Shown here piece by piece: positions 31,549 through 33,971 of a DNA stretch of 64,000 nt (positions within the stretch are counted from its first letter, which is position 1; every line of letters starts with the position of its first letter). The position numbers and the translations under genes were made by a program. The notes below the pieces were generated by a model. The model was not told the DNA's origin. It worked only from the letters and a program-made list of their open reading frames with translations, and made no database searches. The stretch comes from Candidatus Poribacteria bacterium (GTDB lineage: Bacteria > Poribacteria > WGA-4E > WGA-3G), in the NCBI GenBank assembly GCA_965242965.1, contig OZ251518.1, positions 4,128,001 through 4,192,000 on the forward strand, read 5' to 3'.

Positions 31549-32151
31549 TTAGTCGGCTTCTCCAAGATGCCGAATCTCAAAGGCGTAGACGCGCATTGTA
31601 GAAAATCCATTTCTCTCAAACTCTGCGTGTCTCGTGTATGCCGCAAGAAAACCGGTGAATTCATATTTCTGCCCCGATTGATAGGCTTCCGGAAGTTTCG
31701 GCAAGTCCATCGGACGTACGCGAATAGATGGATATCCCTCAAGCCACAATTCATCAACCTCTTCAGTGAAAGGGAAGGCAGTCCAGTCAGTCACAGACGT
31801 GCTGACATAATCAACAACGCCCGTAAAACGAACAAACCGGCCATCATTATCCCACAAGTTTGCGCGCAAGTCTCGCGAGCGGACCGTCTCAACCGCTGCA
31901 TTTTCCAGTGGTGAGAGTGTGACGTTAACGGGGAGTCCGTTTAGATCGTTTTGGAACTGCCCCACGTTTGTGGCGGTGTTGGCGGGTTCACCTTGTTCTC
32001 CGAATTGTGAGGCGACTTCCACCAAATCGAGAATGTTCACGATACCGTCGCGGTTTACATCGCCTGTGAGTTCAGGTTCAACTGCGACAAGGAGTGCACC
32101 GAGACTTAAAACCATCAGCGCAATGACGATGCAAAGTGTTTTGCGTTTCAT
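31549..32151 (-). CDS. Secreted protein with dockerin-like Ca-binding repeat
   Basis: GGAGG RBS; signal peptide; GDVNRDGIVNILDLVEVASQFG. Confidence 0.8.
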   Translation of the reverse strand: MKRKTLCIVIALMVLSLGALLVAVEPELTGDVNRDGIVNILDLVEVASQFGEQGEPANTATNVGQFQNDLNGLPVNVTLSPLENAAVETVRSRDLRANLWDNDGRFVRFTGVVDYVSTSVTDWTAFPFTEEVDELWLEGYPSIRVRPMDLPKLPEAYQSGQKYEFTGFLAAYTRHAEFERNGFSTMRVYAFEIRHLGEAD

Positions 32152-32164
32152 TTAGATTCCTCCG

Positions 32165-32641
32165 TTAGAACGTTCGTTTTGGTTGCGCGCGAGTCAACGC
32201 GCGCATACCGAAGATGCGTGGATGGGCACGGTGCCCGGCCATCTTCGTCTGTCTGAATCGCGGATTTACGAGATTATAGGAAAACATGCATCGGGCCAGT
32301 CCCAATGCAACACAAATAACCCGCCACGCAAAGAATGCGTGCGGGGTAGAAGACGACATGACGACGAAAGTCGCCGCTGTCAAGTGAATAAAATGTGCTT
32401 AACGCCTGTGGGTGTCGGGGGGGGTCGAGCCTCCCCTCCGGGCATTAAGGTGAACGGGAACTCGTGACGGCGCGACAACGGGCATAGACGCACGGCAAAC
32501 GTGCATCTCTCGGTACCCAAGCAGGTCTACGGCGACCTCATTAGCAATGGAAAAATCAATTCGCTGGTTCACGGTATTGTTCCTCGTGTTCGGTTTCGGT
32601 TTCGCGGTGGCGCGTTTTTTTTCGCGCGTATCACCACGTTT
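32165..32641 (-). ncRNA. Candidate large structured non-coding RNA / 5' leader (family not recognised)
   Basis: About 10 non-repeat hairpins in about 480 nt, no credible ORF, directly downstream of three tandem promoters. Confidence 0.55.
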
Positions 32642-32647
32642 GCAATT

Positions 32648-32677
32648 ATTATACACGAAAAATGCAATAAATGTCAA
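32648..32677 (-). promoter_or_regulatory. Sigma70 promoter P1
   Basis: TTGACA (32677-32672) - 18 bp - TATAAT (32653-32648). Confidence 0.75.
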
Positions 32678-32722
32678 ACATTTTTTTTGCGAAAAATCGT
32701 GGAAATGCTCACAATTAACCAC

Positions 32723-32751
32723 ATTCTACAAGAATTTCGGTTTTTTGTCAA
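32723..32751 (-). promoter_or_regulatory. Sigma70 promoter P2
   Basis: TTGACA - 17 bp - TAGAAT. Confidence 0.7.
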
Positions 32752-32825
32752 CGTTTTTCTGCGAAAAATAGTGAAAACAGTTAAATTCACGCGAAAAATC
32801 GCCAAAAATGTTTAAAACTGATTTT

Positions 32826-32854
32826 ATTTTAGCAAATGTCGCATTTTTTGTCAA
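32826..32854 (-). promoter_or_regulatory. Sigma70 promoter P3
   Basis: TTGACA - 17 bp - TAAAAT with extended -10 TG. Confidence 0.7.
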
Positions 32855-33035
32855 GGTTATTTCGCGAAAAAAAACGCTGCTGCTACCGTAGCGCGGGGGA
32901 CAGGCCCCCGCGATCTGCCGACCGAAACGAAAAACGTCCGCAGCCCAAGAGGCCATGGACGTTTTTTGAGATGATCGAGGCATGGCGAGGGACAGGCCCG
33001 CGCCCTACGTTTCGTGGCGCGATTTCCGCTTTTCC

Positions 33036-33971
33036 CTAAAACAACAAATTCTCCCCACTCACAGCCCGCGCCGACTCGCCGCCGAAGGTGAGATTGAATT
33101 GGAACCCAGGACGACTTATATACCCCAACTGAAATGCCAACGTGTTGCTGACCTCATAACGGAACGCTAACCCAATAAGGTTCGCGACGTTCAACCCGGC
33201 ATAAGGAAGTTCGCGCGAGAAATCGGCTACCAATCGCATGTTATCGGAAACGGCGACTTCCGCACCTACCTGCCAATTAAGCGTGAAGAAATCGGTGGTT
33301 CGCAGTGCTTTAGAAGTCAAGAACGCGCCTACACCCGCATGGACTTTGAAGAAATCGCCAAATCGCTGTGTGCCGACGAGATAGGTATTTAAACCGACAA
33401 ACGGGAAACTATCGGCAGGACTATGATCGAGAAATTCGTTGTCGGAGTTGAGCCTGTCATCGGCAGTGTAGCCGAACTGCGCGTCGCCGCCGATGGAGAG
33501 GCTCGGGAAGTTATCGTTCCGGTCTGGCTTGAGGTTATACTTCATGCCGATAATGCCTTCAAAAAGCGACTGCTCATAGACGCGCTGATTGGCGAGTTCG
33601 TCGTTATCGGTATTATAGAAATCGTGGATGACTTTCCGCACGCCGCCGGTTGAGAAAGTGCCGCCAAGCACCAAATCGAGTTGCTCGCTCAACCCGTAGG
33701 TGAATCTGACGGGGATGAGGAACGTCTCAATTTCCAGCGTCACCCGATGCGATTCCTCAAAACCGCCGATATCCACCCGTTGACTGTGGTCTGGGAGTAA
33801 ATCGACCTTGGCGTATTGGAAGAGTCCAAACGTCGTAGTGGAACCGCCTTTGCCCATCGGTTCGGCTGTCTGGATAGTGCTGAGTTGCGGGACAGGCGGG
33901 AGTTGTGCGAATAGCGGTGTCGTGATGCTGATGAGTATCAAACAGCAGATTTGCAATTTAAGATAGCGCAT
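33036..33971 (-). CDS. Putative outer-membrane beta-barrel protein
   Basis: Signal peptide; alternating amphipathic strands (VRFTYGLSEQLDL, AFRYEVS, FQFNLTFG). Confidence 0.65.
   Translation of the reverse strand: MRYLKLQICCLILISITTPLFAQLPPVPQLSTIQTAEPMGKGGSTTTFGLFQYAKVDLLPDHSQRVDIGGFEESHRVTLEIETFLIPVRFTYGLSEQLDLVLGGTFSTGGVRKVIHDFYNTDNDELANQRVYEQSLFEGIIGMKYNLKPDRNDNFPSLSIGGDAQFGYTADDRLNSDNEFLDHSPADSFPFVGLNTYLVGTQRFGDFFKVHAGVGAFLTSKALRTTDFFTLNWQVGAEVAVSDNMRLVADFSRELPYAGLNVANLIGLAFRYEVSNTLAFQLGYISRPGFQFNLTFGGESARAVSGENLLF

Follow-up and report, generated by a model that had tools for sequence, protein, structure and literature searches.

In the homopolymer contingency loci of Neisseria, Campylobacter and Helicobacter, the variable tract lies in the structural gene or in its promoter. 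At the pil1 locus of Streptococcus gallolyticus (Danne et al. 2014, PMC3894217), the GCAGA repeats of a leader-peptide gene decide where its stop codon falls, either 39 bp ahead of a terminator or inside or past it, and translation of the long form was shown experimentally to prevent the terminator hairpin from forming. The open reading frame (ORF) mgtP in the mgtCBR leader of Salmonella senses charged tRNA-Pro or elongation factor P (EF-P) via alternative stem-loops (PMC3641672). Nearly identical upstream regions that stand before non-homologous genes of one genome have been described as putative reused or mobile promoters (Nijveen, Matus-Garcia and van Passel 2012, PMC3575422). Here, we analysed a window of 64,000 nt from a Candidatus Poribacteria bacterium (assembly GCA_965242965.1, contig OZ251518.1, positions 4,128,001 to 4,192,000), in which positions 32900-32152, read on the minus strand, appear to form a promoter-plus-leader cassette working as a translation-dependent transcription attenuator. 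By analogy, its anatomy seems to match the attenuation-like phase switch of pil1 point by point. Poribacteria are uncultivated sponge symbionts with many eukaryote-like surface proteins, which are believed to act in the interaction with the host, and we know of nothing reported on how these proteins are controlled.

Our analysis suggests an attenuator cassette that is translated and gated by a repeat, not a large novel noncoding RNA (ncRNA). We consider it very likely that the stretch works in cis as a regulatory leader containing an upstream ORF and terminators, and we hold with restrained confidence, as somewhat probable, that a poly-C frame switch is its working principle. According to this model, strong tandem promoters would begin an mRNA near 32641, and ribosomes, once past a 5' hairpin, would translate a 57-codon ORF (32572-32399) in which eight C residues are read as proline codons. 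With eight C, the ribosome would halt at the UAA inside hairpin P7, 53 nt ahead of the terminator-like hairpin T1, so that T1 and its neighbour T2 would form and most transcripts would end ahead of the exported-protein gene starting at 32151. With one C more or two fewer, the ORF would move into a frame that is open across hairpin P8, T1 and T2 and stops at 32276-32274; a ribosome trailing the polymerase in this long frame would block both hairpins, and transcription would enter the gene. Changes in the C-run would then switch the gene on and off, or between low and high, in a stochastic and heritable way, and each genome would have such switches at about 20 loci, ahead of different genes for exported and host-interaction-type proteins. 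The features of the locus, in window coordinates, are the following.

32870-32999, no strand assigned: interspersed repeat of the repetitive extragenic palindromic (REP) or miniature inverted-repeat transposable element (MITE) type, about 115-130 bp, directly upstream of the cassette, containing CGGGGGACAGGCCCCCGCGCTACGG
32648-32854, minus: three predicted tandem sigma70-type promoters (TTGACA-N17/18-TATAAT matches)
32603-32638, minus: 5'-terminal hairpin P1 (-18.6 kcal/mol, z -4.25)
32581-32585, minus: Shine-Dalgarno (SD) site GAGGA of the upstream ORF, 8 nt ahead of the GUG start
32399-32572, minus: upstream ORF (putative leader peptide), GUG start at 32572, 57 codons, UAA at 32401-32399
32417-32424, minus: C8 homopolymer, ACC CCC CCC (Thr-Pro-Pro) in the upstream ORF
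32398-32449, minus: hairpin P7, CUUAAUGCC...GGCGUUAAG (-23.9 kcal/mol, z -3.2)
32352-32381, minus: hairpin P8 (-13.1 kcal/mol)
32309-32345, minus: terminator-like hairpin T1 (32345-32320) with U-rich tail UUAUUUGUGUU (32319-32309), -17.3 kcal/mol
32279-32309, minus: terminator-like hairpin T2 (32309-32287) with tail UGUUUUCC, -13.9 kcal/mol, picked up by a terminator scan
32274-32276, minus: stop codon UAA of the long frame that one extra C would open, 10 nt beyond T2
32200-32281, minus: separate short interspersed repeat with two GC-rich hairpins, between T2 and the ribosome-binding site of the gene
31549-32163, minus: main gene with SD GGAGG at 32163-32159, ATG at 32151, 200 aa

Three-frame translation across the C-run in 58 members of the family revealed one recurrent ORF. 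Its start lies 100-160 nt ahead of the run, and its UAA follows the run by 13-15 nt, within the conserved GUUAA of the P7 3' strand. P7 surrounds the C-run, and the stop codon of the upstream ORF lies within its 3' strand. The blocks GAGGAAC and GUGAACCAGCGAAUU, which had at first been taken for helix strands, correspond to the SD site and the first codons of this ORF; in the GAGGAAC block of alignment A2, G3, A4, G5, G6, A7 and C9 are invariant and A8 is nearly so. An SD site and a start codon with an ORF reaching the C-run were found in 27/36 representative loci by a simple SD rule, which missed the other nine, several of which have ORFs in the three-frame translation. Among 20 aligned peptides from several genera, M1 and P51 never vary and P52 hardly does; the N-terminal pattern M-(N/Q/K)-x-R recurs across genera, and the arginine codon of the peptide alternates between CGA, AGA and AGG. 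Runs of 6-13 C are compensated and lead to one and the same stop codon. Elsewhere in the ORF, six of the seven indels are multiples of three (3, 3, 15, 3, 3 and 9 nt), and the lone 1-nt insertion, in copy c1, destroys the upstream ORF. In public assemblies, 71 homologues of 50-100 aa, mostly 57-66 aa, have been annotated by gene callers; all are unnamed, and a Pfam search of the 71 found no domain.

A C-rich run of 5-17 residues was present in 58/58 members, interrupted by U or A in a few. Counted from the end of the run, stop codons close the three frames of the window copy at +15, +34 and +140 nt, T2 ends at +129, and the in-frame stop lies 53 nt ahead of T1; the long frame, entered with one C more or two fewer, is the one that stays open across P8, T1 and T2. 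Some frame is open from the run to beyond the T1 tail at 56/58 loci; in nearly every one of the 58, another frame meets a stop codon no more than about 20 nt past the run. Of 47 loci with a called gene start, 21 have a long frame whose end lies at most about 30 nt from that start. We considered the long frame as a conserved protein and rejected this, as T1 is read in different frames from locus to locus and the peptide is not conserved across genera; the conserved property of the long frame appears to be its openness and not a protein.

Both frame states exist among natural homologues. Where an upstream ORF was recognised (27 loci), 22 loci were in the short state and five in the long state (L063, L069, L072, L079 and L082). 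Among public predicted proteins, an N-terminus joined to the read-through frame was seen in three of the 17 inspected entries of near length (P0019, P0022 and P0032, from a total of 71) and in nine of the 12 inspected longer entries (from a total of 14). At the window locus, slippage of the run would be expected if the frame-switch model is right. An exact-flank pattern scan of metagenome contigs for locus-specific C-run alleles gave 0 matches.

The conservation of the hairpins was assessed in three alignments. Alignment A1 contained 30 copies from four genomes, with the structure drawn by hand from the window copy. In A1, 94.1% of cells were paired versus 29-47% with slid partners, a fraction that is inflated because the structure was derived from the window copy, and 15/69 pairs had changed on both sides versus 6.6 +/- 1.9 in shuffles (0/500 reach it) and 7-10 with slid partners. 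Alignment A3 represented the lineage of the window copy with 32 members (17 copies and three divergent copies from the source genome, and 12 from three related genomes), and 11/30 of its pairs showed changes on both sides versus 4.8 +/- 1.4 expected. We also built a covariance model, R1, of the 3' module (P7 with the C-run, P8, and T1 with its tail; 161 positions, 30 pairs, 32 sequences). Alignment A4, consisting of 26 R1 matches from 26 other genomes, was fitted to this model and therefore leans to the structure, a bias that the slid controls share only partly; 84% of its cells were paired versus 34-56% slid, 28/30 pairs had changed on both sides versus 17.5 +/- 1.8 in shuffles (0/500 reach it) and 9-16 slid, and 127 cells carried changes on both sides versus 48.5 +/- 5.6.

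The individual hairpins gave the same picture. In A4, 7/7 outer pairs of P7 had changed on both sides, P8 showed compensatory changes in 6/11 pairs in A3 and 11/11 in A4, and T1 had 94.6% of its cells paired in A4 with 8/10 pairs compensatory. The T1 stem is also preserved with altered sequence in divergent paralogues, and the T2 stem covaries among copies and genera, T2 being missing in L078 and L080. P1 pairs were retained with compensatory changes at A1 columns 16-22/49-55 and 27-31/44-48. Because pairing and both-side changes exceed the shuffled and slid controls, P7, P8, T1 and T2 are real conserved RNA hairpins. RNAalifold on a MAFFT alignment gave a poor consensus, and variants of the P5 helix were read by eye and are uncounted. 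A preliminary description of this DNA had named covariation among homologues as one way to judge its RNA claim, and on that point the homologues agree with it, with compensatory pair changes well above shuffles.

That description had taken 32165-32641 for an RNA of about 480 nt, either an abundant ncRNA or a complex cis-regulatory leader. All ten hairpins it named are present on the minus strand, the last two of them inside the repeat at 32281-32200. The minus-strand fold of 32152-32650 (499 nt) reached -183.3 kcal/mol with z = -4.03 and was equalled by 0/100 shuffles, versus z = -1.43 for the plus strand, where 8/100 shuffles fold equally well; for five hairpins folded singly, energies lay between -13.1 and -23.9 kcal/mol and z between -2.7 and -4.3. 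Seven positions of the A1 structure form G:U pairs on the minus strand only, which supports the strand call of the description. Its promoters also proved to be genuine consensus matches, with -35 boxes starting at 32854, 32751 and 32677, -10 boxes ending at 32826, 32723 and 32648, and scores of 11/12, 11/12 and 12/12, respectively; judged from the spacing to the -10 box, transcription would start near 32641. In agreement with its statement that no known RNA was recognised, Rfam gave 0 matches at the gathering score across the whole 64-kb window, and ARAGORN found neither tRNA nor tmRNA. At E <= 10, six chance-level Rfam matches appeared in 31900-33100 (E >= 0.13), all far below their gathering scores. 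The one with the lowest E (0.13) lies outside the element, and the sole weak match within 32165-32641 is SorX (32178-32246, plus strand, 14.9 bits versus a gathering score of 46.6).

Two other parts of that description have to be given up. The stretch is not free of interspersed repeats, as 32899-32286 is one of at least 17 family copies and 32281-32200 is another interspersed repeat. The abundant ncRNA of about 480 nt is disfavoured by the translated-looking ORF that is kept, by the multi-copy cassette and by a conserved unit that ends at T2 (32287) and not at 32165. Its other option, a complex cis-regulatory leader, is the one that the evidence favours, including the covarying P7, P8, T1 and T2. 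A conserved ORF with codon-level selection, which the description had named as an objection to the RNA claim, is found in part. A 57-codon ORF is kept across genera with its SD, start, frame, proline run and stop, but codon-level selection is weak within the lineage.

The stretch is one of about 17-24 copies of the cassette in its Poribacteria genome. We searched this source genome (5.7 Mb, 2 contigs) with 32152-32900 as the query and obtained 36 matches, at least 17 of which span 32899-32286 at 81-92% identity. With blastn at E <= 1e-5 and all parts of the query pooled, 327 matches were counted, and most of the 80 best lie on the REP element. An nhmmer profile recovered 17 full copies and six partial or divergent ones, and over 32899-32286 the family of at least 17 copies shows 69-93% identity. 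According to the alignments, the repeated unit combines the REP-type element with promoter modules of about 100 bp (one to three per copy) and a presumably transcribed part of about 355 nt ending in two hairpins; the REP-type element directly precedes most copies. The repeat at 32200-32281 shows 85% identity to C1:4242530-4242610 and has several weaker copies in addition, and among cassette copies it is present in the window copy and c11 only. Short contigs covered the cassette 30-70 times as deeply as the flanks, which is as expected for a repeat and uninformative on expression.

R1 gave 24 matches at E <= 0.01 in the source genome and was found in 82/112 genomes of the same family, covering all 6 genera, versus 0/51 genomes from 8 other families of the phylum. 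In the related-genome copy G4_L022 the proximal promoter is joined straight to the 3' module, and divergent copies in the source genome carry different 5' halves; because of these two observations, the 3' module is taken as the core, and the 5' part of about 200 nt in the window copy as lineage-specific. Locus L095 of the source genome has the P7 and C9 portion of the module (R1 E = 0.021). A third, more divergent subfamily was noted at L096-L098 (G000:C1:5009522-5009675, 1025968-1026126 and 4280033-4280189), with 26-29 bits with R1, the same C-run and a tail GGGCUAUUUGUGUUGCA. The paralogous locus L031 (G000:C1:683923-684795) shows 79% identity to the window over 901 nt, including the start of a second dockerin-like gene; as the shared stretch reaches into the gene, the cassette and the dockerin-like gene were duplicated together. 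In most other copies (e.g. L002, L006 and L008), the 100-150 nt after T2 contain a C/U-rich, G-poor spacer (CCCUGCCACAUUUCCGGUUGCACCCGUUUCC...) and then a CGCGCGCCGC...GCGGUGCG hairpin. This part is kept in three genomes, is missing in the window copy and lies within the long read-through frame; the spacer could serve as a Rho loading site. Contig C1 of the source genome has 118 C or G tracts of at least 8 in 5.66 Mb, about two dozen of which belong to the cassette family, and the remaining tracts may include further switches.

The genes behind the cassette are tightly linked to it. In the source genome, a co-oriented ORF of at least 110 aa starts 51-317 nt after the family match in 20/21 copies and 728 nt after it in the remaining one; these distances were counted from the ends of profile matches, which include T2 in full copies. 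The downstream ORFs mostly have good SD sites, and about 12/21 of the encoded proteins have signal-peptide or lipoprotein-like N-termini, as judged by eye. Closely similar upstream regions (81-93% identity over about 615 bp) stand before non-homologous genes. Pfam matches among the downstream proteins of the source genome were dockerin-like (2), TPR (3; two exported and one with an FRG domain), trypsin-like, LamG, ABC-2 permease, cohesin with a type IX secretion system (T9SS)-type tail, a coiled-coil membrane protein, and tyrosinase (twin copies c7/c9, one of which was scanned); 8/20 scanned downstream ORFs had no Pfam match. The product of the main gene in the window has a weak match to Dockerin_1 (E = 3.9e-4, below the curated cut-off) and is probably exported, judging by eye from its signal-peptide-like N-terminus.

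In the other genomes, 26 loci were examined on the same strand, and a co-oriented ORF of at least 80 aa starts 13-520 nt downstream in 26/26, with a consensus-like promoter 90-540 nt upstream in 16. The downstream Pfam matches there were cadherin (3), LRR (3), fibronectin-III (2), Big_9 (2), lamin-tail, methyltransferases (2), DDE transposases (2) and C5 methylase. At L078 and L080, the gene starts 13-14 nt past the T1 tail, with its SD directly behind the tail; there is thus no room for a promoter of its own, and these genes must be transcribed through T1. In a few genomes (L083 and one other locus; L069), the module stands before a DDE transposase or C5 DNA methylase gene and not before an exported-protein gene.

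The proximal promoter of the cassette closely resembles the core TTTGACATT...ATTTTTGTGGTATAAT of the promoter stack of a tRNA-Ala/23S rRNA region in the source genome (G000:C1:3550360-3550760, minus), and in that region a boxA-like GUUCUUUGACAAU follows the tRNA. We considered several further candidates and dropped them. For boxA-type rRNA antitermination, UUCACUUGACAG in the cassette resembles the boxA of the 23S leader but is unconserved in other lineages; for antitermination by an RfaH- or LoaP-like NusG paralogue, the genome has one NusG-domain gene only. A P5-T1 antiterminator could pair over 6 bp at most and is unconserved, by inspection. A short peptide from an AUG inside P7 was also dropped, as this AUG is unconserved in other genera.

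Several observations weigh against a poly-C frame switch. The run is exactly 8 in 19/32 members of A3, though the copies differ by 10-30%, and a hypermutable tract might vary more. No indel was seen at 32417-32424 in four runs of short contigs (unknown library kind), which does not in itself prove that the tract is constant. A frame open past T1 was found at 26/26 loci of the other-genome set versus 11.2 from mononucleotide shuffles, but a neighbour-preserving shuffle already expects 17.6/26, so that this openness stems in part from base composition. The long frame of the window copy ends 125 nt before the gene start, and therefore translational coupling does not operate in this copy. The U-tracts of T1 and T2 are interrupted, and the terminator scan picked up T2 only; termination at both hairpins, like transcription and translation of the leader, is a prediction of the model. 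Variable sites by codon position number 34, 36 and 43 of 57, indicating weak codon-level selection within the lineage, and the ratio of synonymous to non-synonymous single-nucleotide differences is 0.45 in frame versus 0.36 and 0.52 out of frame.

The constancy of the run bears on a different explanation, in which it is a physiological sensor. Ribosomes would stall or frameshift at its proline codons when EF-P or charged tRNA-Pro is low, and their position or frame would decide between formation and suppression of T1 and T2. EF-P acts at consecutive proline codons, and mgtL in the mgtA leader of Salmonella is another leader ORF with proline codons. In the interior of the peptide, Pro-Pro alone is nearly invariant (the motif is PPD in the window copy), and a run held at 8 C in most paralogues would be expected if the codons matter. 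We nevertheless regard a sensor as unlikely. Inspection of A1, A3 and A4, made without a formal search, revealed no conserved antiterminator pairing with T1; some members have interrupted runs without Pro-Pro (e.g. L081, PSLPQ); and a long frame that is kept open, together with natural long-frame copies, fits a DNA-level switch more simply. A wider combination seems decidedly unlikely to us, namely that ribosome-read stalling or frameshifting at CCC-C, through EF-P or tRNA-Pro, tunes read-through of T1/T2 at about 20 loci, while off-state leaders of about 330 nt with an exposed C-rich loop might accumulate from promoters of rRNA strength and act in trans. If it were true, the ribosome-read proline run would define a translation-state-controlled regulon for host-interaction proteins of a symbiont.

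The same peptide could be read as the purpose of the unit, that is, as a multi-copy gene for a functional 57-aa protein with its own promoters and terminators, spread as a mobile strong-promoter cassette by repeat-mediated duplication. Gene callers do predict it, in 71 near-length and 14 longer public entries, the M-(N/Q/K)-x-R motif recurs across genera, and the cassette including its promoters is 85-93% identical before non-homologous genes, as described for reused or mobile promoters (PMC3575422). However, columns of the peptide alignment average 34% identity, M1 and two prolines alone are conserved, purifying selection on codons is weak or absent within the lineage, no Pfam domain is present, and a self-contained gene would not account for a co-oriented ORF within 320 nt in 20/21 copies of the source genome or for the L078 and L080 genes, whose SD sits directly behind the T1 tail. 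We consider this quite improbable. A stand-alone, abundant ncRNA of about 330-355 nt ending at T1/T2 would instead place the function in the C-rich loop, acting in trans on G-rich mRNA tracts or titrating a C-binding factor such as Rho. Very strong tandem promoters followed by two terminator-like hairpins, a conserved structure with no Rfam match and a Rho gene in the genome would suit it, though nothing links Rho to the element, and a terminated leader would accumulate in the attenuated state anyway. Since the SD, start, frame, in-frame indels and stop position of the ORF are kept, and the linkage to the downstream gene is tight and in the same orientation, we judge this reading to be very improbable.

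Genes for cadherin, LRR, fibronectin-III, TPR, cohesin/dockerin-like, lamin-tail and LamG proteins share one leader design; if the cassette is a poly-C-gated leader-peptide attenuator, this design offers a testable mechanism for stochastic, locus-by-locus switching of surface proteins. For annotation pipelines, the analysis also supplies a covariance model and a family of small peptides that are at present overlooked or labelled hypothetical. It further carries a warning that structure-rich, Rfam-negative leaders can conceal translated upstream ORFs. In the open-access literature, we found no description of such a switch in Poribacteria.

The cassette can now be set beside the known systems. 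As with reused promoters, its copies stand before non-homologous genes of one genome, but its unit is about 600 bp long and adds an upstream ORF, a repeat and terminators to the promoters. It shares with mgtP a long leader, a short ORF therein with adjacent proline codons, and an attenuation of downstream transcription (predicted for the cassette); in contrast to mgtP, inspection found no alternative pairing in it, and whereas the proline runs of mgtP and mgtL are not long homopolymers and are single-copy, that of the cassette is poly-C and multi-copy. With the contingency loci it has in common a poly-G/C tract of at least 8 tied to surface or host-interaction genes at many loci per genome, but its tract lies in an upstream ORF gating terminators, and the structural gene is never frameshifted.

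The likeness to pil1 is the closest. In both, a promoter is followed by an SD site and start of a leader ORF holding a simple-sequence repeat (in the cassette, as read from sequence alone), the in-frame ORF stops ahead of a hairpin (39 bp before the terminator in pil1, 53 nt before the terminator-like T1 in the cassette), out-of-frame repeat numbers extend the leader ORF into or beyond that hairpin, and the controlled genes encode surface or host-interaction proteins. The differences are that the repeat of the cassette consists of poly-C proline codons and that of pil1 of GCAGA pentamers, and that the cassette has two tandem hairpins together with the conserved P7 and P8. The leader of the cassette is a conserved peptide family of 40-65 aa, present at about 20 loci per genome in 82/112 genomes of one Poribacteria family, and in this lineage it carries its own tandem promoters; pil1 is known from experiment, the cassette from its DNA only. 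The mechanism thus has published precedent, and homopolymer contingency loci are classical. What is new is the combination and its scale: a leader-peptide and RNA-hairpin module found, among the genomes searched, in one Poribacteria family, and a multi-copy, reusable cassette with its own tandem promoters before genes for eukaryote-like and exported proteins.

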